Positions 2,956 through 38,212 of a stretch of DNA of 64,000 nt are shown here, one piece after another (position 1 is the stretch's first letter; the number at the start of each line of letters is the position of its first letter). Made by a program: the position numbers and the translations under genes. The DNA is from a phage. The DNA lies in the sequence record PZ445429.1. The stretch is one strand, 5' to 3'. The notes beneath the pieces are model-generated. The model was not told the origin of the DNA, made no database searches, and saw nothing but the letters and a program-made list of their open reading frames with translations.

Positions 2956-3036
2956 CTGTAAAATTGTACTTGCTAAATGACTGAGAATAAAGTAAACTAT
3001 TTCCTAAATCCTGATAACTACAAAAAGGAAAGCCAA

Positions 3037-5367
3037 ATGAGCCATCGCATCGAAAAAGTAATTAAACGTGACGGTACTGTTCAGGACTTTGCTCCTGAAA
3101 AACTCAATGATTGGGCTGCATGGGCATGTAAAGATACTGACGTAAGTTGGTCTGCCGTAGTTATGGCTGCCCTGAAAAATCTACCCAAAGGTGTTGTAGA
3201 TTCCGATACACTCCAAGATGTGTTAATTAAAGCTGCTGAAGGTCTTATCAAAGACAATCCAGCATATGATACTGTAGCAAAGGAATTACGTCTTGCGCAG
3301 ATGCGTAAACGCCTCTATGATTCCTTCGAACCACCTTCTCTACGTTTCTTCCACGATCATATGGTTCGTGTCGGCGCTTGGGAAGACATGAGTGCATGGA
3401 TTAGCGATGATCAGTTTGACGCTCTGAACCAAGTTATTGATCATGATCGCGATCGTTTATTCACCAGTGGTGGACTGAAACAGTTCTTCGACAAGTATTC
3501 CCGTCGTAATATTGCAACTGGTGAAATTTATGAAACCCCGCAGTTTGCCTACATGGGTATGGCAATGGCGATGCTATCTCAACCTAACTGGACAATTCTC
3601 GATGCAATCGACCTCTACAACGCAATGTCACTCCATAAAATCAACGTGCCGACTCCACCTCTCGTGGGTCTTAGGAGCAGCGACCGCGGTTTTGCTTCTT
3701 GTTGTCTTGTTGATAGTACTGATACCCTCGATTCAATCGACACAGCCGAGCACATCGTCTTCAAAATGGTCGCAGCCAGAGCGGGAATCGGGTATCATCT
3801 TGAAAGCCGATCAATTGCTGATCCGGTGCGAAATGGGGCATTCCCGCATTCCGGAAAACTGCCATATTATCGACACATTGACCGATCAGTAAAAGCTAAC
3901 ACTCAGCAAACCCGTGGTGGTTCTGCTACTGTGTCTTACCCATACTTCGATCCTGAAATCATTCAGTTGATGCAGGTTAAGCAGCAACGTGCTACAGACG
4001 AGAATAAAATCGATAAGATGGATTACTCTCTGAGCTTTAACAACCTTCTGTTAAAACGTTACCTGAAAAATGAAGATATTACGCTAATGTCCTACTTCTA
4101 CGCACCAGAAGTTCATGAAGCGTTTTATGGCGAAGATGAGGCTAAGTTTGAAGAAATCTACGTGGCAGCGGAGAAACGTGTGGCATCTCTTACAAAGATC
4201 GACCACGAAGGAAAAACAATTCCAGCAGCTCCTAGAATCTCTGCAAAAGAAATCCTAGATACTTGGTTACGTATCCGTATGGAAACAGGGCGTATGTATG
4301 CTCATCACATTGGTGAATCTAACCGTCATGGTAACTTCCTTGACCCGATTCGTATGACCAACCTTTGTGTTGAAATTACTCAGCCAACCCGTCCATTCCA
4401 TCACATTACGGAGCTGTATAAGACCCAAGATCAGTTAGACGATATGCGTCCAGAAGATATTGGTGAAGTATCTCTGTGTAACTTAGGTGGTGTTGTACTA
4501 GGTCGTATGGAATCTCTGGCTGAATGGGAGAAAACTTGCTACATTCTTCTGAAATTCGTTGATACAATCATCGAGATTCAGGATTACCCATTCCCAACTA
4601 TGGAGTACACGGCTAAGAAACGTCGTAACGTTGGTATTGGTCTGATGAACGCAGCAGGTGCAATGGCAGCAGAAGGTTTGGCTTACGAAGGTGTTGAAGC
4701 CCGTAACTGGATTCACCGTGAAGCTGAAAAGCTGTCCTACTTCCTACATAAAGCCTCTGTACGTCTGGCTAAAGAACAAGGTGCATGTGACTGGTTTAAT
4801 CGTACTAAGCCTTCGCAAGGAACTCTGGTAATCGACACGTACAAGAAAACTGTTGATGAACTGGTAACTGTAGGTCTAGAAATGGATTGGGAATCTCTGC
4901 GTGCAGATATTCTGAAATATGGTATGCGCAACTCTGTTCTGACTGCTCAGATGCCAGGTGAAAGTTCCTCTGTACTGCTAGGTGTTACTAACTCTATCGA
5001 ACCGCCCCGTAAGATCGTATCTATCAAGGGTAGTGCAGTGAATAAAGTAATTGCAATTGCTCCAGGTGCAACTGATTGGGATACATTAATGAGCTATAAA
5101 CTGGCTTATGATGTAGATCGTATCGAGTGGATCAAATGGGTAGCAACCATGCAGAAATTCTTCAGCCAGTCTATCAGTACGAATATGTACTATGACTACA
5201 CCAAGTTCGAGAATGAAATCATTCCCGGCCCAGTAGTAGTTCGTGACTTTATGACTGCTGTTAAGTACGGTTGGAAAACTTGGTACTACGCTAACTTCAA
5301 CACTGAAAATGGTGGTGGAGCTGGTGAAGAAGCAGCAGGTTGTGCATCAGGTGGTTGTAACCTATAA
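3037..5367 (+). CDS. nrdA: ribonucleoside-diphosphate reductase alpha subunit (class Ia)
   Basis: ATP-cone VIKRDG at N-terminus, catalytic NLCVEI region, C-terminal Cys pair, 776 aa; start moved to ATG 3037 with RBS AAGGAAAG. Confidence 0.95.
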   Translation: MSHRIEKVIKRDGTVQDFAPEKLNDWAAWACKDTDVSWSAVVMAALKNLPKGVVDSDTLQDVLIKAAEGLIKDNPAYDTVAKELRLAQMRKRLYDSFEPPSLRFFHDHMVRVGAWEDMSAWISDDQFDALNQVIDHDRDRLFTSGGLKQFFDKYSRRNIATGEIYETPQFAYMGMAMAMLSQPNWTILDAIDLYNAMSLHKINVPTPPLVGLRSSDRGFASCCLVDSTDTLDSIDTAEHIVFKMVAARAGIGYHLESRSIADPVRNGAFPHSGKLPYYRHIDRSVKANTQQTRGGSATVSYPYFDPEIIQLMQVKQQRATDENKIDKMDYSLSFNNLLLKRYLKNEDITLMSYFYAPEVHEAFYGEDEAKFEEIYVAAEKRVASLTKIDHEGKTIPAAPRISAKEILDTWLRIRMETGRMYAHHIGESNRHGNFLDPIRMTNLCVEITQPTRPFHHITELYKTQDQLDDMRPEDIGEVSLCNLGGVVLGRMESLAEWEKTCYILLKFVDTIIEIQDYPFPTMEYTAKKRRNVGIGLMNAAGAMAAEGLAYEGVEARNWIHREAEKLSYFLHKASVRLAKEQGACDWFNRTKPSQGTLVIDTYKKTVDELVTVGLEMDWESLRADILKYGMRNSVLTAQMPGESSSVLLGVTNSIEPPRKIVSIKGSAVNKVIAIAPGATDWDTLMSYKLAYDVDRIEWIKWVATMQKFFSQSISTNMYYDYTKFENEIIPGPVVVRDFMTAVKYGWKTWYYANFNTENGGGAGEEAAGCASGGCNL

Positions 5368-12822: not shown

Positions 12823-13461
12823 ATGACTACTCGTATCTCTAAAACTCGTGCTCTGGCAACTATCAAGTCTCTGGAAGCTAAAATCCGTAAAGCTACTGAA
12901 CAACAGCTTTTGATTGCTGTTGGTGAAGGTAAAGACAAGAATCAAGTTGTCGTTGGTGCTGCAATCGAAGTAGATGCTCTGTCTACTCGTATTAAAACTG
13001 ATTTCCAGTCTCTGCTGGATATGATGACCCAGCGTGATCATCTGAAAGCAGCGCTGATCAAGAGCAATGCTGAAACTGTTGTAGAGATCGGTTCCCGCTC
13101 TATGACTGTTGCGGAAGCAATCGAAGCTAAGCGTTCTATGGAACTCAAAGCTCAGTTGCTGGCTAACATGCGTAAGCAGTTCCATGCTGCTACTGTTAAG
13201 TTTAACACTCAAAAGGCTCAGTTTGATGCCAAGTATGAGCGTTTGCAGGATACCATGGCTACCCGTGACAAGAAGACTTCCGAGGATGAAGTTAAGATGC
13301 AGCTTAACCTGCTGGAACTCAAGAACACTCCGTTCCTGATCGATCCGCTGGAGCTGGAAAAGCTGATCAAGCAACACGACGAAGAGTACCAGGACTTTGC
13401 AACCAACGTTGACTTTGTTCTGTCTGAGTCCAACGCCTCTACTTTTATCGAAGTAGAGTAA
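12823..13461 (+). CDS. hypothetical coiled-coil protein (212 aa), high-expression codon usage
   Basis: RBS AAGGAAG; CTG/CGT-rich codons. Confidence 0.55.
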   Translation: MTTRISKTRALATIKSLEAKIRKATEQQLLIAVGEGKDKNQVVVGAAIEVDALSTRIKTDFQSLLDMMTQRDHLKAALIKSNAETVVEIGSRSMTVAEAIEAKRSMELKAQLLANMRKQFHAATVKFNTQKAQFDAKYERLQDTMATRDKKTSEDEVKMQLNLLELKNTPFLIDPLELEKLIKQHDEEYQDFATNVDFVLSESNASTFIEVE

Positions 13462-15885: not shown

Positions 15886-16513
15886 TAATAGTGGGGTGCC
15901 GAAACCACTTATGTAACAACACTGCCGTCCTAGTATAATAGGTATTATTAGGGCTTCACCGCCTGAAGATGTGGGTTCGAGTCCCACGGTCGGAAAGAGT
16001 TGGATAACTGGTGCTTCTAATGGCGAAGCAATCGCAGGCAGTTGCGCACTGCCAAAACCACGCGGTAGTTGGTTCCAGGCTAACCAACCACTCTTGAAAA
16101 GTATATACTATGGTTTTGCTTGTTCAAGAAGCTTCGCATCGAAAATCGGAGGTGCGATTTTATCCGACCGCGTGGAGGACGTCTCTCCGTTAAGTGACGA
16201 AAAGTGGGACGATTCAGGTAGAGCTGGATATGGAACACCTATACATATGCGGAGTGCGCACAAAGCATATTGCGGTGGTACTAAACGAAATTAGGAGTCA
16301 TGACCTGCACAAGTTTAGTATGTCATAACCGATGTACATTCAGTACAAAAACCACTGAAGCTAAGATAGATAGTCACCTTGACTTAAACTGGAAGATATT
16401 GTCTGACGGAAGGGCTGCAGAGCTTAATCTGAGGGGGCTGACCCTACCTACCGTCGGGTATCTTTAAGAGCTTTTATAAGAGTTCTTAAAAATACCTAAC
16501 AAAAGGAATCAAT
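15886..16513 (+). ncRNA. ~630-nt ORF-poor GC-richer segment with tRNA-like T-arm and hairpins (candidate structured RNA)
   Basis: GUGGG-UUCGAGU-CCCAC T-arm at ~15971-15988, hairpin GGCAGUUGCGCACUGCC, long-range complementarity GGUCGG(15990)/CCGACC(16166); only a low-quality 107-aa ORF. Confidence 0.25.
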
Positions 16514-17031: not shown

Positions 17032-17106
17032 CGGGGTGTAGTCTAAAGGAGAGGCAGGAGTCTTCTAAATTCCTTTATGCAGGTTCGAATCCTGTCACCT
17101 CGGCCA
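17032..17106 (+). tRNA. tRNA-Arg (anticodon UCU)
   Basis: cloverleaf by hand: acceptor CGGGGUG/CACCUCG, anticodon loop CUUCUAA, T-loop UUCGAAU, encoded CCA. Confidence 0.7.
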
Positions 17107-17139
17107 ATTTTATTAACTGTAATTAAACAAAGGAAATAT

Positions 17140-18084
17140 ATGTTTACTAAAAACACTAAAGAACTGACTTCTGAGCAAAAAGTAATTCGCACTATCAAAC
17201 GTTGGGGTGTTGGTGCTGTATTTGGTCTTGGCGCTATTATTCTGGCTCTCAATTCCTACACAGTTGTTCAGGATGGTACTGTTAAGACTCAAACCTTCCT
17301 GGGTAAAGTTAGCCCGAACCCTGTACTGCCCGGCTTCCATATTGTTAACCCATTTGCTTCTTTTGATACTTTTAGTACGAAAGATATTTCTATGAAACTG
17401 GATAAACTTCAGGTTCCTAGCCAGGATAAGTTTAAGTCTACTGTTGACATTACCGTTATGTTGCAGTTTGATGGTGCTAAAGCTCCTATGAACCGTGTTA
17501 ACGCAGGTACTCAGGATCAGGCTCTGAACAAGTACGTTGAAGAGAAGATGCTATCTACGATTCGTGAGTTTGGTAAGTCTGTACCAAAAGCACAAGATCT
17601 GTTCGACGCTAAGATTCAGGCTCAACTGCAAACTGCTATTCAGCAAGAAGTAGAAGAGTATGCGCGTCCTTATGGTTACACCGTTAAGCAAGTATTCCTT
17701 CAGGATATTACTCTGCCACCGGTAATCATGGAACAGGTACAGAACACCAAAGTTCGTGAAGAACAAGTTAACGCTGCAAAAGCTGAACTGGCTCGTGTTG
17801 AACAAGAAGCACAGCAGAAAGTTAAGCAAGCTGAGGCAGATCGTTCCGCTCGTGAAAACATGGCAGTAGCTAACGAACGTGACGCAGATGCTAAACTGTA
17901 CGCAGCTAAGAAAGAAGCTGAAGCTAACGCCGCTCTGCAACGTACCATTACTCCTGAAATGATTCGTTGGAAGCAGCTGGAAGTTGAAATGCTTCGTGCT
18001 GAAAAATACCAAGGTGGTGTACCGCAGACTGTTGTTGGTACTGGCTATGATGGTCAAATGATCATGGATATGCGTAACAAGTAA
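17140..18084 (+). CDS. SPFH/band-7 (prohibitin-like) membrane protein
   Basis: N-terminal TM helix then SPFH-like core and long Ala/Glu/Gln-rich coiled coil; start moved to ATG 17140 because track N-terminus overlaps a tRNA. Confidence 0.55.
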   Translation: MFTKNTKELTSEQKVIRTIKRWGVGAVFGLGAIILALNSYTVVQDGTVKTQTFLGKVSPNPVLPGFHIVNPFASFDTFSTKDISMKLDKLQVPSQDKFKSTVDITVMLQFDGAKAPMNRVNAGTQDQALNKYVEEKMLSTIREFGKSVPKAQDLFDAKIQAQLQTAIQQEVEEYARPYGYTVKQVFLQDITLPPVIMEQVQNTKVREEQVNAAKAELARVEQEAQQKVKQAEADRSARENMAVANERDADAKLYAAKKEAEANAALQRTITPEMIRWKQLEVEMLRAEKYQGGVPQTVVGTGYDGQMIMDMRNK

Positions 18085-18107: not shown

Positions 18108-18195
18108 AAGCCCGCGTTTCCTCCGAGAGCGCGGGCTTTTCTGTATTTAAGACAAAAGAAAAGCCCCTTACCTTTCGGCAGGGGCTTTGTTTTTG
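18108..18195. terminator. pair of hairpin terminators between convergent SPFH (+) and Q/M-rich (-) genes
   Basis: AAGCCCGCG...CGCGGGCTTTT and AAAAGCCCCTTACCTTTCGGCAGGGGCTTTGTTTTT. Confidence 0.6.
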
Positions 18196-18401
18196 GTTTA
18201 GAACCATATACTCTTGTTACAGCAACCACCCATACGGGAGACCAATCTTGACTGAAAATCTACTCTAGGGGGCAGGATAAGAGTAGGCTTAAAGGCAAAC
18301 GGATTGAACACCGGTATTTGCGTAAACATTGCTGGAGAGCAACAACGTGCTACAGGCATTGGGCAGCATGACGTAGGTTTTCTACAACACATATAAACTC
18401 C

Positions 18402-18821
18402 TTAGGATTTCTCCCCATTTTGCGCTTTTGCAACTTGACTTTGACAGAAACTGTTAAACTTACCCATAAGTGATACAAGTTGCTTTCCATCCTCTGTTTT
18501 AGCGAAGTCTTCGAAAAGGGCTAGAACAGCCTGTCCTTCCGCAGATACCTGCGGTTGTTGGGTTTGTTGAGTCATCTGCTGCTGTGGTTGCATTTGCTGA
18601 GGCATCATCTGCTGAGGCATCATTTGTTGCATTTGCATTTGCGGCTGCATTTGCATCTGGTTGATGTTTCCCTGCGGGTTTTGCAGGGAATTTTGCATTT
18701 GCTGTGCTTCTGCCAATCTCTGTTGCAACTGTTGTAAGTAGGGGTTATCAAGCCCCGGAACGGGCTGCTGGGAGCCCATACTTTGATTAAATCCGTTGTT
18801 CACAAAACCATATTTACTCAT
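18402..18821 (-). CDS. Gln/Met-rich low-complexity protein (139 aa)
   Basis: minus-strand ORF with RBS GGAGGAG; QMQPQMQMQQMMPQQMMPQQ repeats. Confidence 0.5.
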   Translation of the reverse strand: MSKYGFVNNGFNQSMGSQQPVPGLDNPYLQQLQQRLAEAQQMQNSLQNPQGNINQMQMQPQMQMQQMMPQQMMPQQMQPQQQMTQQTQQPQVSAEGQAVLALFEDFAKTEDGKQLVSLMGKFNSFCQSQVAKAQNGEKS

Positions 18822-18843
18822 GATGGGCTCCTCCCCTTAATTA

Positions 18844-19839
18844 TTAAGCCGGCAGTTTAGCCTGCAGACCAGCCAGAGTCTGAGTGATAGCACCAAGACT
18901 TACAGCGATTTGGTTGATTACCTGACCGTTAGCACCACTACCCTGAGCGATAGCTTCACGCAGACGGCATTCGTTCAGTTCGTCCTGAATACGCGCAGTA
19001 GTTACACCAGCGATTGCAGACTGAAGTTCACAGCAGCATTCAGCGATCTGACGTTCCAGAGCGTTCTGGTTAGCACAAGCCTGAGCAGCTACAGCAGCGA
19101 ACTGGTTGTTAGTCTGGATAGACTGAGCAAACATGATCTGAGCGGTATCGAACTTGTCTTGAGCACGTGCGATCTGGTTAGCAGCGAAAGCTTGATCCAT
19201 CTGGCGAGAAAGATCGAACTGACCCTGAATAACGTTACGAGTTTCCTGACAGATCTGGTTGGACAGGTTAGCACCAGTACCGTAGATCGTAGTCAGAAGC
19301 TGTTGAGTACTAGCAGCTTGAGCAGCTCCTACACCATTTACTGCACTCAGAACAGCACCAGTACCCTGATTAGCTTCAGTACGAGTAGTGTTGATTGCAG
19401 CTAGAATACTTGCAGTATCCTGGTTAGAAAGGATCGCGTCCACAGCAGTTCCCTCAGCGGCAACACCAGCACCGCGGCCAAAACCACCGAAACCACCGAA
19501 TCCACCTGTTAATAGAGCACCGATTAAGATAGCTCCGAATAGACCCATACCTTCACCACCGAAAGCACCGTTAGCAACTGCTGGGTAACCACCCATTAGG
19601 CCAGGGAAGCCACTAGTGAATACGTTTACTGGTTCTTGCATTTTATGTTTTCCATGTTTATGACAATGTTCATCATCGTCATCTTCTTCATCATCTTCAT
19701 CGTGTTCACGATGTTCTTTTTCGTAGGCTTTGACCTTCTCCCACTTTTTCTTGTCTGATTCTTCGTGACGACGCAGTTCTGCTGCTACGCCAGCGACCGT
19801 ATCAGGACTCTTAGCTACTTCTTCTGTCATTTTTGACAC
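18844..19839 (-). CDS. His/acidic N-terminus plus glycine-zipper membrane segment protein (331 aa)
   Basis: minus-strand ORF with RBS GGAGGTG; HREHDEDDEEDDDDEHCHKHGKHK then GGFGGFGGFGRGAG then Ala/Gln-rich domain with CCC motif. Confidence 0.55.
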   Translation of the reverse strand: MSKMTEEVAKSPDTVAGVAAELRRHEESDKKKWEKVKAYEKEHREHDEDDEEDDDDEHCHKHGKHKMQEPVNVFTSGFPGLMGGYPAVANGAFGGEGMGLFGAILIGALLTGGFGGFGGFGRGAGVAAEGTAVDAILSNQDTASILAAINTTRTEANQGTGAVLSAVNGVGAAQAASTQQLLTTIYGTGANLSNQICQETRNVIQGQFDLSRQMDQAFAANQIARAQDKFDTAQIMFAQSIQTNNQFAAVAAQACANQNALERQIAECCCELQSAIAGVTTARIQDELNECRLREAIAQGSGANGQVINQIAVSLGAITQTLAGLQAKLPA

Positions 19840-20036
19840 CTCCTAGTATATAGAAAATGTGTGTCTCTTTGATCACTCATCCATAACATATACTTTACAC
19901 TACCCCAGCGAAAATGTCAAGGGGTCTTTAAAAATTGCCCCCGGATTTTTAGTGGGGTAACAATTTCTGGACCTCACCACTCACCTGCTACCCTTAAGTG
20001 CCCTGCGATTTTCCACTAAAAAGTTTAAAAATTCGA

Positions 20037-20065
20037 TTGCTTGAATGCTAAATTCTCTATATAAT
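20037..20065 (+). promoter_or_regulatory. early promoter TTGCTT-N17-TATAAT (nadR-pnuC)
   Basis: family consensus. Confidence 0.6.
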
Positions 20066-20095
20066 ATATTTATAAATTTGAGAGAGGAATCAAAT

Positions 20096-21151
20096 ATGAT
20101 TAAGACTGGTCTAGTAATTGGTAAGTTCGCACCATTAACGCGTGGTCATATTAACCTAATAAACACAGCAGCAACTATGTGTGAACGAGTTATTGTTGTA
20201 GTTAGTCATGATAATCGTTGGCTGGATAAGCAGAACACACGTGATCAGGAAGTATTACAGTTAAAGAATCGACTTCGTTGGTTAGAACAAACTTACGCGG
20301 ATATTGAGCACATTTCGGTAGAGTACATTATTGAAGATGATATTCCTGAATATCCGAATGGTTGGCCGGAATATGCTAGAATCCTTAATGAAAATTACGG
20401 ACATTTGCCTGAGATCACCATTTTCTCTAGCGAACTAGACTATGATGCAGAATATAAGAAATATCTGCCGAAGTTTGGTCATTATATTGTAGATTCTGAT
20501 CGGACTCGTGTTCCAATCTCAGCTACAATGATTCGTAATGATCTTATGAAGTATTGGGAGTTTCTTCCTAGCGTAGTTCGTAAAGATTACGTGCGTAAGG
20601 TTGTAATCATTGGGACTGAAAGCTCGGGAAAGACTACTTTAACAAAATACCTTGCGAAGCTATACAACACTTCGTGGGTAGAAGAATATGGCCGAACGTA
20701 TTGTGAAGTTGATCTAGTTGGTAACGAAAATCTACTTACCAGTGAAGATTATAGTAAAATTGCGTTCAGACACAAAGAGCTAGAGTTTGAAGCAGAACGT
20801 ACTGCAAATAAGATCATGTTTGTGGATACAAATGCTTTTATTACTGAGTTCTACCACAGACTTTATGAACATCGTAAGAATCCTGTGGTTACAGCAATTG
20901 CAAAAGAAGAACATTACGATTTAGTAATTGTTCTAGCGCCTACTGTTAAGTGGGTAGATGATGGTTTACGTATTAACTCCGATCGTTCAATTACTTCTGA
21001 ACTGTTCGAGCAGATGAAGAAAGAATTTCCAAATCAGTTCCCTGAAGGGCGTACTGTTTACATCGACTCCCCGGACTACAAAGTTCGTATGGACGAAGCA
21101 GTAAACGCAGTAGACTGGCTGATTCATCACTTTAACGTTGGAGAGTTTTAA
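20096..21151 (+). CDS. nadR: NadR-like bifunctional NMN adenylyltransferase / ribosylnicotinamide kinase
   Basis: GKFAPLTRGH nucleotidyltransferase (H/T)xGH motif; second P-loop VIIGTESSGKTTL; promoter 20037-20065. Confidence 0.7.
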   Translation: MIKTGLVIGKFAPLTRGHINLINTAATMCERVIVVVSHDNRWLDKQNTRDQEVLQLKNRLRWLEQTYADIEHISVEYIIEDDIPEYPNGWPEYARILNENYGHLPEITIFSSELDYDAEYKKYLPKFGHYIVDSDRTRVPISATMIRNDLMKYWEFLPSVVRKDYVRKVVIIGTESSGKTTLTKYLAKLYNTSWVEEYGRTYCEVDLVGNENLLTSEDYSKIAFRHKELEFEAERTANKIMFVDTNAFITEFYHRLYEHRKNPVVTAIAKEEHYDLVIVLAPTVKWVDDGLRINSDRSITSELFEQMKKEFPNQFPEGRTVYIDSPDYKVRMDEAVNAVDWLIHHFNVGEF

Positions 21152-21152
21152 T

Positions 21153-21830
21153 ATGACTAACTATCTTGTAAATGACTTTAAAAACTGGAAACCTTTGGAA
21201 TATCTGTGGCTGTTTATAGCAGTCGCCTTTATTAGTTTAGCAAACTATAATGGTACAGCTCTAGATTGGGCTACTGCAATAACCAATGTGGTTTGTGTTA
21301 TTCTGGTTGCAAAAGGACGTGTTTCCAACTATATTTGGGGCTTAGTGGGTGTTCTTACATACGGTATTACAGCTTTAAACGCAGATCTTTATGGTAATGC
21401 TGCACTAAACCTGCTATACTACGTTCCTATGCAGTTTTATGGAATGTACTTATGGCATAAAAATAAGCCAAGTAATCTGCCAGATGTTCCAACTAAGGTT
21501 CTGAATAAAGCCCAAGCTCTGCTGACTCTAGGGATTCTAGCAGTAGCTACTTTAGGTTACGGCAGCTTCCTTGCTACTACCGCTGATCCATTCCCAATGC
21601 TTGACGCATTTACTGCGGTTGGTAGTGTGATTGCTATGTGGCTTATGGTCAAACAATATGCTGAACAATGGCTGATTTGGATTGTTATTAACATTGGTAC
21701 TGTGTACATTTGGCTTGTAACTGCTCAATCTACAGGTGCATCTTACGCAATCCTAGCAATGTGGCTAGTATTCTTAGGCAACTCTATTCTTGGAGCTTAT
21801 AAAGGATACTTTGTACGCGTTAACAAATAA
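21153..21830 (+). CDS. pnuC: PnuC-like nicotinamide riboside transporter
   Basis: multi-TM protein, translationally coupled to nadR, WGLVGVLTYGITAL / Trp-rich PnuC-like helices. Confidence 0.6.
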   Translation: MTNYLVNDFKNWKPLEYLWLFIAVAFISLANYNGTALDWATAITNVVCVILVAKGRVSNYIWGLVGVLTYGITALNADLYGNAALNLLYYVPMQFYGMYLWHKNKPSNLPDVPTKVLNKAQALLTLGILAVATLGYGSFLATTADPFPMLDAFTAVGSVIAMWLMVKQYAEQWLIWIVINIGTVYIWLVTAQSTGASYAILAMWLVFLGNSILGAYKGYFVRVNK

Positions 21831-30590: not shown

Positions 30591-30812
30591 ATGCACGTTT
30601 TTGAGTTTCGTGATAAAAGTAACAATAAACGAGTTATTGTTATTGGAGAAACATACCTAGCATACGAACAAACTGACGGCTCTGTTATCTTGAATGATGA
30701 GAAAGCAAATTTTAGCTTTTATCCAGAAGAACCTTATGAAGAGTTTCGTACTAAGTTTCTTTTACCAGACTGGCTAGCAGTAGCCGAGCAACTAGAATCC
30801 GAAGATGGCTGA
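30591..30812 (+). CDS. hypothetical protein (73 aa)
   Basis: RBS AAGGAAA. Confidence 0.45.
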   Translation: MHVFEFRDKSNNKRVIVIGETYLAYEQTDGSVILNDEKANFSFYPEEPYEEFRTKFLLPDWLAVAEQLESEDG

Positions 30813-30969
30813 TAACCTGAAACTAAAGGTTGACAAACAAAAGAAACGTGTAGAGATTGAGCTTGGTGACGAACGCCTAGCACTATCCTTCGAGTTTCTT
30901 CAGCAGTTGGCGATGACAGTAATGTCTGATAAGTCTCCTGTATTTGAAAAAGAAATCCCGTTGAAATGA
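30805..30969 (+). CDS. small ORF (54 aa), not in track
   Basis: ATG overlapping previous stop (ATGGCTGA); ends just before tRNA-Thr. Confidence 0.3.
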   Translation: MADNLKLKVDKQKKRVEIELGDERLALSFEFLQQLAMTVMSDKSPVFEKEIPLK

Positions 30970-30979
30970 CGGGTTTATT

Positions 30980-31054
30980 GCTCCTAAAGCATTGCTGGCG
31001 ATGCAGTTGCCTTGTAAGCATCTGAACTGGGTTCGACTCCTGGTGGGAGCACCA
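30980..31054 (+). tRNA. tRNA-Thr (anticodon UGU)
   Basis: D-stem GCAU/AUGC, anticodon loop CUUGUAA, T-loop UUCGACU, CCA. Confidence 0.6.
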
Positions 31055-31128
31055 AATTTAAAAATTCATTTGCCTTCTCTCTTATTTCTTGTTATAATAT
31101 TTATATAAATTAATGAGAGGGAAACCAA

Positions 31129-31422
31129 ATGAAACGTTATCTTTCTGTCGTATTCCAAACGGGTGGTCAACGCTATACTTACGAATTTCCTGAGTCTTGG
31201 AAAATTAAAGAAGGTGATCAAGTTGTTGTATTAACACCTCGTGAAGGCTTCAAAGTAGTAACGGTTAAACAAGTCTTTCCAAAAGATCACGAACCATCTA
31301 AGTCTATTCAGTACAAGATGATTCACGGTCTGGTACGAAAAGTACCTAGAACAGAAGTCGAAGTAGATAAAACTGGGGAAGCTAAATACCAGTATACTTC
31401 TTACTTGGATGAAATGATGTAA
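31129..31422 (+). CDS. hypothetical protein (97 aa)
   Basis: promoter ~31068-31096, RBS GAGAGGGAAA. Confidence 0.5.
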   Translation: MKRYLSVVFQTGGQRYTYEFPESWKIKEGDQVVVLTPREGFKVVTVKQVFPKDHEPSKSIQYKMIHGLVRKVPRTEVEVDKTGEAKYQYTSYLDEMM

Positions 31423-31423
31423 T

Positions 31424-31499
31424 GCTCTGATAGTTCAACAGGTTAGAACAGGCGACCGATAATCGTCAAATCTTGGTTCGATCCCAAGTCGGAGTACCA
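31424..31499 (+). tRNA. tRNA-Ile (anticodon GAU)
   Basis: D-stem GUUC/GAAC, anticodon stem GGCGA/UCGUC loop CCGAUAA, T-loop UUCGAUC, CCA. Confidence 0.55.
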
Positions 31500-31505
31500 A
31501 ATTAT

Positions 31506-31581
31506 AGTTAGTTGGCAGAGTGGTTATGCACCTCCTTCATACGGAGCGACTACAGTGGTTCAACTCCACTACTAACTACCA
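31506..31581 (+). tRNA. tRNA with CAU anticodon (third copy; Met/fMet/Ile-lysidine)
   Basis: acceptor AGUUAGU/ACUAACU, anticodon loop UUCAUAC, T-loop UUCAACU, CCA. Confidence 0.55.
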
Positions 31582-31764
31582 AAGATAAGATCAGGCCTTT
31601 GTGCCAGATCTCTGTGTTTATTAAACTGAATGGGACTATCAATCCACAAGCCGGACTACGAGCGATTATCGGGTATTCACTTAATAAACAGCCTGCCTCC
31701 CAGTTTTTATCTTGCTTCTGGGTTAACAAAAAGCTGAGCCAAATTCTAACATCAGGGAGATCTA

Positions 31765-32133
31765 ATGAAAGCATATCAAAGTCTTAAGTCTGGCGTAATT
31801 AACCTTGTTCATGATAACCAGATCATTCAGCTATATTCTAAAGATGGTGAACTTAAACAAAAGGTTCTAGTTGAAGATCTAGAGGATATCACACCTCATT
31901 TTGACCCTGAGGCCTTCCGCATTGTAGATGTAGAAGTGGTTCCTCAAGTCGAGGGTGGTCAGCACCTAAATGTCAATGTGTTAAGCCGTGATCAGCTTTT
32001 GGATGCACAGAAACATCCTGAAAAATATCCTCAGTTGACCATCCGTGTCTCTGGCTATGCTGTTCGATTTAACGCATTGACGCGTGAACAACAGAACGAC
32101 GTTATTAGTCGTACATTTACTCAGGCGATATAA
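31765..32133 (+). CDS. hypothetical protein (122 aa)
   Basis: RBS GGGAGA. Confidence 0.5.
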
Positions 32134-32214
32134 TGGGGTTTGGATACGATTTCTCCCAGCTACGCAAGGTAGTCGAGCAAACTCCATTTATCTCCCAAGT
32201 TTTAGGAGAAATGT

Positions 32215-32514
32215 GTGGATCGAGCATTAAGACGCCATCACCGGCAACGTGTGAAAAACAATCGCAAGAAGTATTGGACAGTCTTCCCACACGAAGAAAG
32301 TCCTAAGCGGTTAGGCATTATCACTACCACTCCTTGCATCTGTTCTTGTTGGATGTGTGGGAATCCTCGCAAATACTATAAGAATAGTAAAGCAGGCATG
32401 AAAATCTCGGAGATTAAAAAGATGGATGCAATGATTATGGGCATCACCTTTACAGGTGGTATCTCTGATGAATTCGACGGTTTTGTAAATCAGGATATTG
32501 TCGAAATTATCTAA
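32215..32514 (+). CDS. Cys-rich protein (99 aa)
   Basis: GTG start after RBS AGGAG; CICSCWMCG; terminator 32524-32556. An alternative 57-aa frame from ATG 32134 exists. Confidence 0.4.
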   Translation: MDRALRRHHRQRVKNNRKKYWTVFPHEESPKRLGIITTTPCICSCWMCGNPRKYYKNSKAGMKISEIKKMDAMIMGITFTGGISDEFDGFVNQDIVEII

Positions 32515-32523
32515 TTAATAATA

Positions 32524-32560
32524 AACCCCAGCTATTGAATAAGTAGTCTGGGGTTTTCTT
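32524..32560 (+). terminator. rho-independent terminator
   Basis: AACCCCAG...CTGGGGTTTTCTT. Confidence 0.6.
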
Positions 32561-32578
32561 GTATATAGGATTTTCGAA

Positions 32579-32764
32579 ATGAAAATTTTTAAAGTGAACT
32601 ATAGCGGCCTGTGGTTAGGTGGTACAGCTATTGTTGTTGCGGAAACTGCAGAAGAAGCAATCGAACTGGCTAGAAATCATAGAAGTTCTATAGAATTCGA
32701 GAATGTGACAGTAGAAGAACTCCCTAGCAGTGGGGTAGTATACAACGACAACGGAGATTACTAA
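32579..32764 (+). CDS. hypothetical protein (61 aa)
   Basis: short ORF. Confidence 0.4.
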   Translation: MKIFKVNYSGLWLGGTAIVVAETAEEAIELARNHRSSIEFENVTVEELPSSGVVYNDNGDY

Positions 32765-32822
32765 TGTTATATTTTGAAGTTCGTCCACATTAAGTTAATT
32801 TAAAAGACTTAATGGAGGTAAT

Positions 32823-33218
32823 ATGAGCCGTACATATCGTAAACAATCTGGTGATCGTCACTGGCGTGATGCACATCGTTCTACTTATAATTTTCATAGC
32901 ACTAATATCCGTATTCCGTATATCTACACGGATAGGGATGGTAAGCAGTGGAAATATTATCAAGTTCGATCCAATGAAGCATGGGCTAAAACTTGGGATG
33001 AAATTGAGAAGGAGATTCAGGAAAATATCATTCGTAACGAGAAGAAAGATGGGCACTGGTGGGATTCTATTAGTAGAAGTGTTAAGTGGCATTCTAACAA
33101 AATGGTTCGTCAGGGAAACCGTCGTGAACTTCACCGTGTGATGAAAGATCCAGAAAATTACGACTATAATCGTGATCATGACCTGCGTAAGCGTGGGTTA
33201 TGGTGGGTTTATGACTAA
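32823..33218 (+). CDS. basic Trp/His-rich protein (131 aa)
   Basis: RBS GGAGGTAATATG. Confidence 0.5.
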   Translation: MSRTYRKQSGDRHWRDAHRSTYNFHSTNIRIPYIYTDRDGKQWKYYQVRSNEAWAKTWDEIEKEIQENIIRNEKKDGHWWDSISRSVKWHSNKMVRQGNRRELHRVMKDPENYDYNRDHDLRKRGLWWVYD

Positions 33219-33294
33219 TTTCATAAATAATTCATTTGCTAAAACCCTCTCCTTTTGATATAATATTTATATAAATTGATGAGAGGGCTTTGAA

Positions 33295-33567
33295 ATGAAA
33301 GAAGCAGAAATTAATGAAATGGCTAGAATATTCATCGTTTCCTATATGCAAGGCAGTTGCAATAGTTTATTCGAGTCTGCTATAGTATTTCAGGAAATGT
33401 TAGCCGAGAAAGGCGTACATATGGAAGATACTGAAATTGAAGATCTTCTAATGGAAACTTGTAGTAGTGCTGAAGTCTTCCAGTGTGGTAACTGTAATTG
33501 GTGGTGTCCAGAGCATGATCGTTCTGAAGAAGGTTCCTACTGTTCCGATTGTGAAGGAGAAGAATAA
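33295..33567 (+). CDS. Cys-rich protein (90 aa)
   Basis: CGNCNWWC ... CSDC; promoter ~33235-33263. Confidence 0.5.
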   Translation: MKEAEINEMARIFIVSYMQGSCNSLFESAIVFQEMLAEKGVHMEDTEIEDLLMETCSSAEVFQCGNCNWWCPEHDRSEEGSYCSDCEGEE

Positions 33568-33866
33568 TGAATAAGTTTATTATTGCTCTAGTAATTTCAG
33601 CAGTTAGTTTCGGTTCTCTGGCATCTACCAAAGTTTCTATGAAAAATGGTAATGTTAAAGTTCAGCAGAATGGCATTACCACCGAATATGGTAAAGTACG
33701 TGATGTAAAAGAACGTAATGGCAAAGTAGAAATATATACTAATAAAAACTTCTCTACTCCGGCTGTTACTATTAGTAAACGTGGTGAAATCACTACTCAA
33801 CGTACTAATAGTTCTGATTCTTTTACTTGCCGTTATGACTGCGGCTTTGAAGGTGAAGATGAGTAA
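33567..33866 (+). CDS. secreted protein (99 aa)
   Basis: signal peptide MNKFIIALVISAVSFGSLA. Confidence 0.5.
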   Translation: MNKFIIALVISAVSFGSLASTKVSMKNGNVKVQQNGITTEYGKVRDVKERNGKVEIYTNKNFSTPAVTISKRGEITTQRTNSSDSFTCRYDCGFEGEDE

Positions 33867-34278
33867 TTTAGACCCTAGAATTAAACATGCAGTTGAAGAA
33901 ATCCAAGATCAAATCGATGAGGATTTCACTGTTTGGTCAAGATTTGGTAATGGTGAAGGTTGTCAGCTTTATAGCATGAAAATGGGTATCTCGATTGAAC
34001 TTAGTATCAATCCCGAGGGTAACGTAGAAGCCCAACCCATGTTCAGTGTTCCAGGCTTCTCTGGATTTGTTATGGGCATGAAACTATGTCTACCAAATAA
34101 ACATCTTTACCGTGTTATCTGTCAGCTAGAAACAATTAAACATTTCTTGCCAGAAGATAACATTAATGACTACTATCATGAAGTTGTAGCAGCTTACATG
34201 ATGAAAGAACGCAAACGTCGGAGAGCAGAACGTGAAAGAGCTAAATCTCAACAGTCTAGTACAGATTCCAGCAACTGA
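33859..34278 (+). CDS. hypothetical protein (139 aa)
   Basis: ATG 33859 overlapping previous stop. Confidence 0.45.
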   Translation: MSNLDPRIKHAVEEIQDQIDEDFTVWSRFGNGEGCQLYSMKMGISIELSINPEGNVEAQPMFSVPGFSGFVMGMKLCLPNKHLYRVICQLETIKHFLPEDNINDYYHEVVAAYMMKERKRRRAERERAKSQQSSTDSSN

Positions 34279-34528
34279 TGCTGTACTAGACTTCCTCAAG
34301 CAGGAACATATTAAGTTCTGGACTAACTATGCAGAACAGTACGAAGAAACTTCTAGTGCAATAACATTCGCGGATAAACGAATAGCTGAGTATACAGATC
34401 CTAGAGTTAAAAATGGTATGATTACCTTACCACTTTGGGATGTAATGGAAAAGTTTGGTAAAGATTTGTGCCCAGGTTGTATACCATTGTTTGTTACTAT
34501 TCTAATTGACGAAAAGGATCTTAAATGA
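34232..34528 (+). CDS. hypothetical protein (98 aa)
   Basis: GTG start; start uncertain. Confidence 0.35.
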   Translation: MKELNLNSLVQIPATDAVLDFLKQEHIKFWTNYAEQYEETSSAITFADKRIAEYTDPRVKNGMITLPLWDVMEKFGKDLCPGCIPLFVTILIDEKDLK

Positions 34529-34809
34529 TTATCTCTCCATTTGCTTTGTGGTTTGTTATTGGTGCAGTTGTCGCGATTTACAGTCTGATTGATGATCTGT
34601 ATATCTCTAAAAATAAAGATGTTATTCTTTATGTTATAAACAAATATCGTCCGCCAGAATTAGCAGAATTTGACGATGAAAAGATGTTCAAATTCATTAT
34701 GTCAGGTATGCTTATTATGGACACCTTATTCGGGCCAGTAGCTACTTATTTCTTCTTCCGTAAAACTCGTAAGATGAAAAAGTTCCGTGCTGAAATGCAG
34801 AGCAAGTAA
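34525..34809 (+). CDS. membrane protein (94 aa)
   Basis: two TM helices. Confidence 0.45.
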   Translation: MIISPFALWFVIGAVVAIYSLIDDLYISKNKDVILYVINKYRPPELAEFDDEKMFKFIMSGMLIMDTLFGPVATYFFFRKTRKMKKFRAEMQSK

Positions 34810-34925
34810 AGAACTCGCGTAGGACCGAGTTGCGTCACCTGCAACTGTTACGGATAAGGGAGTCGTGCCCCTTAGTGCGGTAAGTGGTGAGTTGGTCGCT
34901 GACCTCAACTTTAACTGGAGATATC

Positions 34926-35273
34926 ATGAGCTTTATTTTATTCATTGTAGCAGCATGGTTTATTATTGGTTTAGGCTATGCTATTGCAGTTATTCGTCAT
35001 CTGGATGAATATTCTGCTGAATGGTTTATTAAGTACCTACGTTTAGACGATCAAGAACACGAGTTCGACAGTGCTGAGGAAAGACAGGCTGTCCAGTCAA
35101 TGACTCCCAAAGAATGCTTGCTTTACATGCGTGTAATTGGTTTCTTTGGACTGTTGGTAGCGGGGCCGCTAGGTCTTACTATTGCTCCCTACAAAGAAGT
35201 TGTTGACGACATTAAACTATGGAGAACCGCTGGATCGCTACGTCGTGCTAGAGAATTAAGTAAACAAGAGTGA
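34926..35273 (+). CDS. membrane protein (115 aa)
   Basis: ATG 34926 after RBS GGAGATATC; TM helices. Confidence 0.45.
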   Translation: MSFILFIVAAWFIIGLGYAIAVIRHLDEYSAEWFIKYLRLDDQEHEFDSAEERQAVQSMTPKECLLYMRVIGFFGLLVAGPLGLTIAPYKEVVDDIKLWRTAGSLRRARELSKQE

Positions 35274-35307
35274 TGATAATCACCTCCTAGCAAGAATAAT
35301 AATGACA

Positions 35308-35343
35308 AAGCCCAGCCTGCAATTTTGCGACTGGGCTATTTTT
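35308..35343 (+). terminator. rho-independent terminator
   Basis: AGCCCAG...CTGGGCTATTTTTG. Confidence 0.6.
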
Positions 35344-35418
35344 GTAATAAAATTTCAGTTGCTCAGATGCCACAAGTATTGTATAATATGTTTATAGATT
35401 GAGGCAAAAGGATAATTT

Positions 35419-36117
35419 ATGAGAATCATTTCAAAGTTCAATGATGTATACGATTTGCAGAATAGTTTATTTGATCCAGATCGTGTCTGGGAGCGTAAAA
35501 CTGAAGAGCTGCTGGTAAAAGTAACTGACGATGTAGAAAAGAATATCGTTCATAATCGTCAGGTGTTTCGTGAGGGTTCCTTATCCTTCCGTGGTGATTT
35601 CGAATACTCAGTAAATCCGCTATTTATTGCAGGTGAAGTTTACTGGTTACATGAGCTGTCCTGCTGGCATCCGGCATTCAGTTTCAAAACGTTCAACATC
35701 GATGCTGTATTTGATAAAATGGAAGAAATGGGATTACATGCCCGTTCTTACTTACTAGATAAGAATCGTGGTGATGTTCGTGAAACCATGCGAGATATGT
35801 TGGTTGAAGCAAAACCTAAAGCAGAACGTATCTTATCTGAACTGCGCGTACCAATTGCGTATGTGAAAGGTATTAAGAAGAACGATAACGATGATGTTCG
35901 TAACTTCGTAATTCAGACAAACATTCGTTTCCACCAGTCAGATATTCCGTGGCAGGAAATTGAAAGTAACTTATACCGTTTACACCAAGTTCTCGAACAG
36001 TATATCTTCGGTGTATTAGGAACTGGTGAGCCTGATATGATTACCGTATCAGATAAAGACAGGTTAGCAGCACATGGATTTGATACAAAAACTTCTTTCA
36101 GGAATATGGCAAGGTAA
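35419..36117 (+). CDS. hypothetical protein (232 aa)
   Basis: promoter ~35355-35383, RBS AAAGGA. Confidence 0.55.
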   Translation: MRIISKFNDVYDLQNSLFDPDRVWERKTEELLVKVTDDVEKNIVHNRQVFREGSLSFRGDFEYSVNPLFIAGEVYWLHELSCWHPAFSFKTFNIDAVFDKMEEMGLHARSYLLDKNRGDVRETMRDMLVEAKPKAERILSELRVPIAYVKGIKKNDNDDVRNFVIQTNIRFHQSDIPWQEIESNLYRLHQVLEQYIFGVLGTGEPDMITVSDKDRLAAHGFDTKTSFRNMAR

Positions 36118-36523
36118 GTGGTATATCCTGGGAGCTGGTCTTGCGATAGGTATCGGATTCGGTGCTTATCATTTAGTAAATAAGGTTGAAACTTTAGCGG
36201 GAGATCTTGCAGTTGCGACTAAAAAGATCTCCACTCTAGAGACTTCTCTTAATAAAGTGAAAACTGAGAGTGAACTTCGTGAGACTCGAATGAATCAGTA
36301 TTTCACAATGAATAATGTTTCGCAAGCAGATCTAGACAAAAAGATTAAGCAGTTAGATAAAGCTCTTAGTCGTCAAGATGTTATCGCTGCAAAGCCTGGA
36401 TTGGTAACATTAATTGCTAAAAAGCAGAATAAAGAGTTCGAGGAAAGATTAGCATGTTTAACTGGAAACTTGGAGTACTGCTCGCAGCCGCAATCACAAT
36501 CACAGGCTGTGCAGAAGAAATAA
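36074..36523 (+). CDS. putative i-spanin-like protein (N-terminal TM + periplasmic coiled coil)
   Basis: 149 aa, TM helix ILGAGLAIGIGFGAYHLV then coiled coil; 3' end overlapped out of frame by a lipoprotein ORF. Confidence 0.4.
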   Translation: MDLIQKLLSGIWQGKWYILGAGLAIGIGFGAYHLVNKVETLAGDLAVATKKISTLETSLNKVKTESELRETRMNQYFTMNNVSQADLDKKIKQLDKALSRQDVIAAKPGLVTLIAKKQNKEFEERLACLTGNLEYCSQPQSQSQAVQKK

Positions 36524-36807
36524 AACCAGAGCCATCTCATGAGTTAAAGCAAGCTCATGTTGACTGGCCTAAAGGACTTCAGCCGTGTAGCTTTGATTTC
36601 AAATTCGAAAAGAAATTAGCTACAAATGGTGAAGATGGCGTAGTAGTTGTTGTACCTTACAAAGATTGGAATGCAAAAGCAAAATGCGAGGAAGCAGTTT
36701 ACTCTTACATTTCACGACTGACCGGTATGGTTTGCTTCTATCGTCAAGATTTACAAGAAAAACGTTGCTTAGTTTACTATCCACCCATTACAAATAGGAA
36801 AGATTAA
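36454..36807 (+). CDS. putative o-spanin-like lipoprotein
   Basis: 117 aa, signal peptide with lipobox ITGC, several Cys; starts inside previous gene in a different frame. Confidence 0.4.
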   Translation: MFNWKLGVLLAAAITITGCAEEIKPEPSHELKQAHVDWPKGLQPCSFDFKFEKKLATNGEDGVVVVVPYKDWNAKAKCEEAVYSYISRLTGMVCFYRQDLQEKRCLVYYPPITNRKD

Positions 36808-37559
36808 TGTCAGTATTAGTCGGTTTACATGGTGAGGCTGGTGCGGGAAAAGATACCGTTGCAGAATTAATGATTGACTGGTGTAATGACACGTTCCCAA
36901 CGTGTTTATCCCGTCGTTACAGTTTTGCTAAACCCGTTTACGAACTTGCATCCGTAATCCTCGGGGTAACTCCAGAGTTTCTGGGAGAGCGCAGGGGAAA
37001 AGAGATTGACCAATGGTTTACGGTCACACAATCTCAATTGGAGCGAGCTAGAGACGTATGGTTTAAGTATGGTATCGATAAGTTTGAGGACTTCTCGTAC
37101 GTTTGGCCGATTTTTGAAGGAAAATACCTTGATCCTCAGCAGTTAATTGGGCAAGCTGATGATGCGCTGTATAGCGTGTTTATCTCCCCAAGAAAAATGC
37201 TACAGCTTGTAGGTACTGAGTTAGGAAGGCAGCTGGTGCATGAACGCATTTGGCTCATAATTCTGGAGCAATCCATCGATAAAGACGACCCAGACGTCGC
37301 AATCGTTACCGATGTGCGTTTCCCCAATGAGGGAGAGCTAATCATGGAAACCAATACTCTAGATATGGATTCCATGCTTATTAAGGTTGAATCTGGTATT
37401 ACTAATAAGTATCGCATCGAGACAGATCATCCGTCTGAAAGCGGTATTCCTGAAAAATACATTTCTCATAAATTTGAGAATACCTTCAACGGACTTGATG
37501 CACTTCGTACCGATGTGTACCACTTCTGTGACTTAGAGCTAGAACCACTAGTTGGATAA
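36807..37559 (+). CDS. dnk: deoxynucleoside monophosphate kinase (putative)
   Basis: P-loop LVGLHGEAGAGKDTVAE at N-terminus, 250 aa. Confidence 0.55.
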   Translation: MSVLVGLHGEAGAGKDTVAELMIDWCNDTFPTCLSRRYSFAKPVYELASVILGVTPEFLGERRGKEIDQWFTVTQSQLERARDVWFKYGIDKFEDFSYVWPIFEGKYLDPQQLIGQADDALYSVFISPRKMLQLVGTELGRQLVHERIWLIILEQSIDKDDPDVAIVTDVRFPNEGELIMETNTLDMDSMLIKVESGITNKYRIETDHPSESGIPEKYISHKFENTFNGLDALRTDVYHFCDLELEPLVG

Positions 37560-37571
37560 TTAAGGATCACT

Positions 37572-38171: not shown

Positions 38172-38180
38172 GTAGTTTTA

Positions 38181-38212
38181 AGCCAGAGTTTAACGACTCT
38201 GGCTTTTCTTTT
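38181..38212 (+). terminator. rho-independent terminator
   Basis: AGCCAGAG-TTTAACGAC-TCTGGCTTTTCTTTTG. Confidence 0.6.

Follow-up and report, generated by a model that had tools for sequence, protein, structure and literature searches.

A mobile three-gene operon of T5-like phages and the superfamily of predicted helical rods to which its first product is assigned

What is encoded by a small minus-strand island in the transfer RNA (tRNA) region of a T5-like phage, and what might its products do in the infected cell? The island lies in a stretch of 64,000 nucleotides from sequence record PZ445429.1, here called the window. Between positions 17000 and 22000 the window is 99.5% identical to Salmonella phage EH3 and 98.5% identical to Escherichia phage GreteKellenberger, both T5-like and the latter placed by its record in the Demerecviridae, genus Epseptimavirus; on this identity we assign the window to a T5-like Epseptimavirus. 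A sequence-only reading had put the island at 18402-19839, described two open reading frames (ORFs) there as the only early-region genes on the minus strand, and suggested that the larger product was a glycine-zipper protein, perhaps a pore, toxin or exclusion protein, and the smaller a prion-like protein able to form condensates. Both ORFs are present, at 18844-19839 and 18402-18821, and their products have the composition described: an acidic, His-rich head, a Gly-rich hydrophobic segment and an Ala/Gln-rich tail with a CCC motif in the larger, and a Gln/Met-rich smaller protein. The statement about strand applies to the tRNA neighbourhood (the window has 28 tRNA genes, and the T5.077-079 operon is situated within the tRNA region) but not elsewhere, as a further minus-strand gene block is annotated at ~50.7-54.2 kb. 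The unit itself is wider than was supposed, running from a promoter at 19920 to a terminator at ~18153 and including a third gene.

The island is a self-contained operon of promoter, three genes (here A, B and C) and terminator, and it corresponds to T5.077/078/079 (T5p075-077) of phage T5. Its sigma-70 promoter, TTGACA-17-TAAAGT (19892..19920, minus strand), matches the consensus at 10 of 12 positions and is the equivalent of P12, which is annotated at the homologous place in the T5 and BF23 records; the same hexamers recur upstream of the cassette in a distant T5-like contig (L034). Gene A (18844..19830, minus strand), the T5.077 homologue, encodes 328 amino acids and matches phrog_8119 with E=2.4e-196. 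Its start is ATG 19830, with AGGAGG at 19844-19839, eight bases before the ATG. The alternative start at GTG 19839, which underlay the earlier length of 331 residues, was rejected: it falls within the AGGAGG Shine-Dalgarno sequence, and T5 and BF23 annotate the equivalent of the ATG. Gene B (T5.078 homologue, 139 residues; 18402..18821, minus strand; phrog_7894, E=2.4e-65) is followed by the previously overlooked gene C (T5.079 homologue, 64 residues; 18198..18392, minus strand), which has its own AAGGAG ribosome-binding site and a product of the pattern MCC..SCC..RCC..GCC. Directly after gene C stands a strong hairpin terminator, read from the sequence as AAAGCCCCTGCC-GAAA-GGTAAGGGGCTTT followed by a T run (~18153..18188, minus strand), where T5 carries the annotation 'efficient bidirectional rho-independent terminator' (ter1); terminators also lie directly 3' of gene C in contigs L006, L008 and L034. 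Back to back with it is the hairpin terminator of the convergent SPFH gene (18108..18148, plus strand), and the two hairpins at 18108-18188, one per strand, part the operon from that gene. The plus-strand hairpin holds a GCGC site, where T5 and BF23 annotate the major nick (single-chain interruption). Between the window and T5 the ratio of nonsynonymous to synonymous substitution rates (dN/dS) is 0.14 for A, 0.13 for B and 0.23 for C, a degree of purifying selection that marks all three as genuine genes. An assignment to the late genes by orientation was rejected, as the structural genes occupy the other strand.

The T5 genes and the BF23 ORFs are direct orthologues, with the same order, the same P12, the same bidirectional terminator and the same position in the tRNA region, and nothing material differs. 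The match names A, B and C without explaining them: T5.077-079 have been annotated as 'hypothetical' since 2004, the BF23 record has 'ORF 326aa/138aa/64aa', and a literature search found no mention of T5.077-079 or T5p075-077. Comparison of the three proteins with Pfam, NCBIfam and PADLOC, including the defence-protein models of PADLOC-DB v2, returned nothing significant, and the sole matches in PHROGs, 8119 for A and 7894 for B, are both labelled 'unknown function'. The sequence-only reading had named one result as incompatible with its claims, a confident match to a structural or housekeeping phage protein of known identity; a search for such a match found nothing either.

Protein A gave 221 tblastn matches in GenBank phages, nearly all of them T5-like, the exceptions being Pseudomonas phages KPP23 and RSP. 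B follows A in all six lineages examined, homologues of C lie downstream of B in L006, L008, L034, L035 and KPP23, and the order A-B-C is constant across T5-like, lambdoid, N4-like and KPP23-like contexts. In a lambdoid contig the cassette is found between the Q antiterminator and opposite-strand holin-lysozyme-Rz genes, in an N4-like contig it adjoins the virion RNA polymerase and three tRNA genes, and in KPP23-like Pseudomonas phages it is the first element of a same-strand block from which the terminase genes diverge; A-B-C is also present in a distant 114-kb T5-like phage (L034). In the T5-like, lambdoid and N4-like contexts it lies on the strand opposite to its neighbours. With an own promoter and an own terminator, as in a moron or autonomous operon, and a patchy occurrence in unrelated phages at different places, A-B-C is a horizontally mobile accessory operon. 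Morons such as lambda bor and lom, T5 llp and T4 imm and sp are alike in having their own promoter and terminator, patchy spread, dispensability and a membrane-associated product, and the opposite orientation of the cassette in four of five lineages adds to the likeness. They differ in that the cassette comprises three co-conserved genes, joined in the three non-T5 lineages by an ORF for a Zn-ribbon protein, rather than one small gene, and in that it occurs mainly in virulent phages. Profiles of the cassette and of a soluble subfamily of A (see below) found no relative in 185,579 representative prokaryotic genomes, the cassette was found in no plasmids, and the lambdoid version had no match in 5,426 complete Escherichia coli genomes; because of this absence we regard the cassette as a module of lytically growing phages and not a common prophage conversion gene. 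To known exclusion proteins it has no sequence relation.

The Zn-ribbon ORF (CxxCG...CxxCG...C.P.CR.RK) lies divergently upstream of A on the minus strand in the lambdoid, N4-like and KPP23-like versions (L006 5716-5919; L035 4756-4911; L008 5746-5892; KPP23, L040, ~4380-4523), whereas T5-likes are without it. These ORFs are homologous to one another, with pairwise E-values of 1e-7 to 1e-17, and may encode a dedicated regulator of the cassette. The operon is dispensable for lytic growth, because it lies as a whole inside the T5 st0 deletion (annotation of the T5 record) and the viable mutant T5Mos lost 30661-38625, taking P12 and the 5' half of T5.077 (PMC11464382).

Alignment of 28 cassette-type A sequences divides the protein into six parts: a conserved N-terminal helix (AAEL.RHE..DKK); a variable acidic or His-rich spacer, with His runs up to HHHHHH in some T5-like versions; a nearly invariant KM-QEPVNVF motif; the Gly-rich hydrophobic segment; a long Ala/Gln/Asn-rich region with invariant C252 and C265-267; and a highly conserved C-terminus, NGQVINQIAVSLGAITQTLAALQAK. 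In the window protein the acidic, His-rich head reads HREHDEDDEEDDDDEHCHKHGKHK and is followed by the Gly-rich hydrophobic segment GLFGAILIGALLTGGFGGFGGFGRG and the Ala/Gln-rich tail with CCC. The putative membrane anchor, residues ~93-118 (GMGLFGAILIGALLTGGFGGFGGFGR; 19477..19554, minus strand), was located on the Kyte-Doolittle (KD) scale, on which its 19-residue maximum of 1.72 reaches the transmembrane (TM) threshold, and at the homologous place other family members have strongly hydrophobic stretches (e.g. FLLFLLLLL, WFWIILILLF), so the membrane association proposed earlier for A is probable. The most conserved part of A is its C-terminal segment, NGQVINQIAVSLGAITQTLAALQ, which is moderately hydrophobic (KD 1.33). 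The triplet Cys265-Cys266-Cys267 (19030..19038, minus strand), in the motif Q-I-A-E-CCC-E-L, is invariant in 28 of 28 cassette-type proteins. The codon for Met64 within KMQEPVNVF (19639..19641, minus strand) is nearly invariant in the same alignment, and short family members begin exactly at the EPVNVF-type motif, i.e. around Met64; GGAG or AGGA occurs 6-10 nt upstream of it in five of seven lineages, in a region that is purine-rich anyway. Met64 may thus be an internal start, a processing site or the seam of an N-terminal extension. Modelling of full-length A with AlphaFold2 (AF2) gave a predicted local distance difference test (pLDDT) score of 45, with a low-confidence helix at 128-324, and at that score the model was unusable for a fold search. 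Overall, A is probably composed of a charged head, a Gly-rich anchor and an all-helical rod of ~200 residues.

Codon use sets A apart from the rest of the window. Its E. coli-optimal codons number 235, where per-amino-acid usage across the window would predict 158.5 (z=+9.1); it is the top outlier among the 65 ORFs of at least 100 amino acids that were ranked, with GCT at 40 of 52, GGT at 27 of 36 and CGT at 10 of 12 of the respective positions. A is therefore predicted, from codon adaptation, to be very highly expressed and abundant. The adaptation of B is average (z=-0.2). Further outliers are a 212-residue ORF at 12823-13461 (plus strand, z=+6.2) and a 796-residue ORF at 2977-5367 (plus strand, z=+5.7).

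By profile comparison the rod of A is assigned to a large, undescribed viral superfamily (PHROGs 8119/9288/16490) for which there is no Pfam model. A profile search (hmmsearch) of 1.8 billion cluster representatives recovered 106 proteins, of which 103 are remote, and CCC is present in 71 of these 103. The superfamily motif is L-x2-Q-[MLI]-A-[EQD]-CCC-[ED]-[LI]-K-x2-[IV], to which A conforms (ERQIAECCCELQSAI) with a partial deviation, Gln for the consensus Lys at +5. Some members have a Gly-rich anchor and some are soluble, many end in a Cys/Pro-rich tail, and many are without any hydrophobic segment yet retain the rod and CCC. The T5-type rod aligns with the soluble subfamily at 99.1% probability in hhalign (E=1.7e-18), and the soluble relatives have no signal peptides. 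AF2 modelling of the rod domain from a 41-sequence alignment gave a single uninterrupted helix over residues 2-117 with a pLDDT of 92, and a Foldseek comparison of this high-confidence model with the PDB gave no match. PDB sequence searches with the A1 and A3 profiles likewise yielded nothing significant (SlyB, E=0.7); a hit to ApoA-IV (E=0.0024) was rejected, as it reflects only a composition of 11/22-residue repeats. Across 138 members the hydrophobic period is 3.64-3.67 residues, at four times the shuffled level, and across the superfamily the autocorrelation of residue identity peaks at lags of 11, 22 and 33, which together indicate hendecad repeats, as in straight bundles or in amphipathic helices lying on a surface. 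A heptad coiled coil was rejected, since the same 138 members have no 3.5-residue signal. In the hendecad register the first two Cys of CCC occupy core positions d and e, and many members have further Cys at 11-residue intervals.

A sister group (P0032-P0035, P0040, P0058-P0064 and others) has an HE-rich head, a VNVF-type motif, a Gly-rich anchor and a long Gln/Asn-rich helix; it is without CCC and ends in a conserved C-terminal N-T-x-V-[RK] motif. A scan of IMG/VR with the soluble-subfamily profile identified 43 loci, many of them labelled as giant-virus metagenome-assembled genomes (MAGs) or belonging to contigs 200-470 kb long, and it is largely in giant-virus MAGs that this subfamily occurs. 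GC content is 22-42% in the loci sampled, and several carry a family-B DNA polymerase, an MSV199 domain or an ATP-dependent ligase. The giant-virus CCC genes are tandem paralogues with Gly/Tyr-rich heads (GYGLGYG) and CPPPCPPPC tails, for instance the triplets in giant-virus MAGs L042 (2969-5711), L043 (3613-6326) and L061 (3657-5996), which lie near a family-B DNA polymerase, and they have no export signal. A collagen-like ORF with a GPTGSTG repeat lies directly downstream of the paralogues in L061. A literature search for hendecads in giant viruses found nothing. In human-gut and other phage fragments (L036 950-2909, minus strand; L037 2446-4590, plus strand; L012 8001-9096) a Q/M-rich B-like ORF and an anchored CCC ORF with a Cys-rich tail adjoin an ORF that is BclA_C-like by a sub-threshold Pfam match. 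In L036 a sigma-70 region-4 protein and an M15 peptidase are encoded upstream of the B-like and CCC genes. A ferritin-like identity for ORFs beside the gut-phage relatives was rejected for want of Pfam support.

Protein B is 27% Gln and 10% Met, and its gene contains short imperfect DNA repeats with periods of 6-30. What is conserved is an N-terminal helix (LQQ[RK]LAEAQ..Q) and a C-terminal domain of ~30 residues (F..F..TEDGKQL...GKF..FCQ) with an invariant Cys126. The middle tract is Q/M-rich in T5-likes only, and is Pro- or Pro/Gln-rich and of other lengths in the lambdoid, N4-like and KPP23-like versions; we read it as a flexible spacer and not as a conserved prion-like domain, so the suggestion of a condensate-forming protein finds no counterpart in what the family conserves. 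GenBank and UniRef records (Seabear, Sepoy, ESCO40) label B 'cAMP-dependent protein kinase catalytic subunit', which we reject, as there is no kinase domain match; the label is probably an artefact of Q-rich low-complexity similarity. Protein C always begins with Met-Cys, extended to MCGCC in the lambdoid version and to MCC in the other five of the six lineages; in the window it begins MCCRKPTSCC, has four Cys-Cys pairs and is rich in Pro and aromatic residues (FNPF). Its composition is like that of the Cys/Pro tails fused to remote family members. No signal peptide or lipobox was found in C in any of the six lineages, and no signal peptide in B. Conserved Cys are thus present in all three proteins.

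How might these proteins act together? Our favoured reading, which we put forward tentatively and at somewhat less than even odds, is that A forms an abundant, membrane-anchored, Cys-stapled assembly of rods on the inner membrane of the infected cell, with B and C as partners and an accessory role. A would be made in very large amounts and held in the inner membrane by its Gly-rich anchor; the rods would bundle into straight homo-oligomers, with bound metal or disulfides stapling each bundle at its Cys layer; and B and C would be Cys-bearing partners that join A in a dense structural layer lining the inner membrane, most likely on the cytoplasmic side. A would then be neither a pore nor an enzyme. 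The accessory role in lytic growth that we would guess at first is protection or re-organisation of the envelope, through exclusion of competitors or through stabilisation of the envelope and of lysis timing. A cytoplasmic rod is the most probable arrangement because the relatives are without export signals, because the anchored short forms have acidic N-tails free of Lys and Arg and a conserved Arg after the TM segment, and because B and C are without signal peptides.

Several points weigh against this proposal. The long form, with its charged head of 63 residues, points to an N-in/C-out topology, with the rod in the periplasm, in conflict with the N-out/C-in topology predicted for the short forms. 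If the rod is cytoplasmic, the reducing conditions there would preclude stapling by disulfides and leave putative metal binding. The sole grounds for proposing an A-B-C complex are conserved co-occurrence and shared conserved Cys. The T5-type protein taken by itself has a top period of 3.69 at marginal significance (p ~0.04-0.09), the hydrophobic segment is not modelled as a helix in the full-length AF2 prediction, and codon adaptation is a prediction of the abundance of A and no proof of it. The absence of the cassette from the 185,579 genomes weakens scenarios of exclusion in lysogens.

A broader version of the proposal, which we consider possible but doubtful, is that self-assembling, Cys-stapled hendecad rods form an ancient family common to tailed phages and giant viruses, a 'keratin-like' scaffold encoded by viruses. 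Its membrane-anchored version, mobile in T5-like, N4-like, lambdoid and KPP23-like phages together with two Cys-bearing partners and, in the three non-T5 lineages, a putative Zn-ribbon regulator, would assemble into a layer joined by cross-links at the inner membrane of infected cells. The analogy is to keratin with keratin-associated proteins and to the exosporium proteins ExsY/CotY and BclA, which similarly combine a Gly/aromatic-rich head (GGFGGFGGFG in A), a helical rod and a Cys/Pro-rich element (gene C, or the CPPPCPPPC tails), and the BclA_C-like and collagen-like neighbours of remote relatives add a further likeness to the exosporium system. The differences are that sequence homology is absent and that the repeat is a hendecad and not a heptad; the likeness is compositional and serves as a lead only.

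The rival that survives best, though we judge it unlikely, places the rod across the envelope: A would be a type II inner-membrane protein with a cytoplasmic head, a helix of ~300 Å spanning the periplasm, DsbA-made inter-chain disulfides at CCC and other Cys, and a C-terminus touching the outer membrane, acting like an i-spanin, TolA or the phiX174 H tube to block the DNA of competitors or modulate lysis. The rod is long enough for the periplasm, the hydrophobic segment is preceded by the Lys/His-rich HKHGKHK, and translocation of a charged head of 63 residues would be difficult; A has several conserved Cys, as spanins do, and its most conserved, moderately hydrophobic part is the C-terminal segment that would make the distal contact. 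The cassette also adjoins lysis genes or lies within a few kb of them in the lambdoid contig, in gut-phage fragment L036 and in T5, which has its endolysin gene at a distance of 2.6 kb on the opposite strand. One comparison is with lambda Rz/Rz1, likewise a membrane-anchored helical Cys rod with a small Pro-rich Cys protein. A two-component spanin was nevertheless rejected: C has no lipoprotein signal, and with B and C both without signal peptide or lipobox there is no o-spanin-like partner; A, at twice the size of Rz, matches neither the Rz model (PF03245) nor any other for spanins or holins and has a charged head of 90 residues before its anchor (residue 93 on); its repeat is a hendecad and not a heptad; and the lambdoid contig has its own Rz. 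Protein H of phiX174 is similar in architecture, with ~328 residues, a Gly-rich hydrophobic N-terminus and a long Gln/Asn/Ala-rich helix with 11-residue repeats (MQLDNQKEIAE / MQNETQKEIAG), but it is a virion protein of a single-stranded DNA phage, without CCC and without partner genes, and homology was rejected at an hhalign probability of 0.7%. The soluble and giant-virus relatives without export signal, the N-out/C-in prediction for the short TM forms and the fact that operon-deleted T5 mutants still plaque, so that A is not needed for plaques, also count against a trans-envelope rod.

That A is instead a glycine-zipper pore-former, a toxin, holin-like or exclusion protein that would depolarise or permeabilise the membrane, we hold to be improbable. 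Small membrane proteins are common among the exclusion and lysis proteins of phages, and A does have a Gly-rich hydrophobic segment with GxxxG-type spacing in its GGF repeats; this spacing occurs only trivially, inside the GGFGGFGGFG run, and the hydrophobic core is GxxxxGxxxxG. In an hmmscan against Pfam at E up to 1, A did not match Gly-zipper_Omp, Gly-zipper_YMGG or Rick_17kDa_Anti, no holin model was matched (A has 328 residues, a holin ~60-150), and no glycine-zipper, holin or toxin match was found in Pfam, NCBIfam, PHROGs or PADLOC. The near-consensus sigma-70 promoter and the highest codon adaptation in the window fit a bulk protein and not an early pore, which in massive amounts would abort infection. 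A pore would leave the conserved 200-residue rod of a 328-residue protein unexplained, and what the family conserves is the rod with CCC, which the many anchor-less relatives keep. Of the earlier idea of exclusion or pore formation, then, an accessory and possibly exclusion-type role survives, and the pore or toxin does not.

We attach similarly little likelihood to a thiol or metal sink, in which Cys-lined bundles together with C and the His/acid-rich head would store or sequester Cu, Zn or Ni, or buffer thiol-reactive compounds. Cys-lined bundles that store copper are known, and core-facing Cys, the Cys ladders at every 11 residues in many members, the four Cys-Cys pairs of C, the His runs of up to HHHHHH in some T5-likes and the high predicted abundance of A would all suit such a function. 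Against it, the His-rich head is not conserved beyond T5-likes, family and PDB searches turned up no metal-binding homologue, the cassette is not accompanied by genes related to metals, and the membrane anchor and B would be left unexplained. Least probable is a virion or surface-fibre component, disulfide cross-linked after release. In its favour, some remote relatives follow tail genes, others lie beside BclA_C-like or collagen-like genes, and the Cys/Pro-rich tails are reminiscent of cross-linked structural proteins. Against it, the T5-type operon has an early-region position and a sigma-70 promoter, a membrane anchor would be out of place in a virion, and a virion role for the cassette type is made unlikely by the infectious particles of the deletion mutants st0 and T5Mos and by mass spectrometry of KPP23 virions, in which ORF072-074 are not listed (PMC4031330).

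Convergent with the operon is the T5.080 homologue (17077-18084, plus strand), an SPFH/band-7 membrane protein gene for which record labels vary ('lipoprotein', 'membrane protease'); it too is strongly codon-adapted (z=+5.7), and codon use thus predicts two adjoining abundant proteins of membrane-scaffold type. Immediately divergent from the operon, at 20045-21830 (plus strand), lie genes for a NadR-like nicotinamide mononucleotide (NMN) adenylyltransferase/ribosylnicotinamide kinase and a PnuC transporter, a phage pair for salvage of nicotinamide adenine dinucleotide (NAD). At 15923-15996 (plus strand) ARAGORN calls a tRNA with anticodon TCA ('tRNA-SeC'), which could be an opal-suppressor-like tRNA or a miscall.

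The three genes were already known as long-annotated hypotheticals; what is new, in that none of it was found in the literature and databases searched, is the mobile three- to four-gene cassette, the hendecad/CCC superfamily with its extension into giant viruses, and the extreme codon adaptation of A. Among model phages T5 is a classic, and the gene with the best codon adaptation in the window is still annotated there as 'hypothetical'. The operon has been exchanged among at least four unrelated phage groups that infect Gammaproteobacteria, and the core domain of A links tailed phages to giant viruses of eukaryotes, with no Pfam model, solved structure or literature found for it. Natural deletion mutants, T5st0 and T5Mos, exist, and the operon is directly testable. 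If exclusion or envelope protection is its role, it would be relevant to competition between phages and to therapeutic cocktails that contain T5-like phages. If A does form a Cys-stapled membrane assembly, this would add a new kind of intracellular structure to those that viruses build, and the Cys triplet in a hendecad core would be a new motif for protein design; and should the keratin-like scaffold prove true, it would represent a new class of viral cell-remodelling structure, comparable to the phage tubulins or the nucleus shell of jumbo phages.

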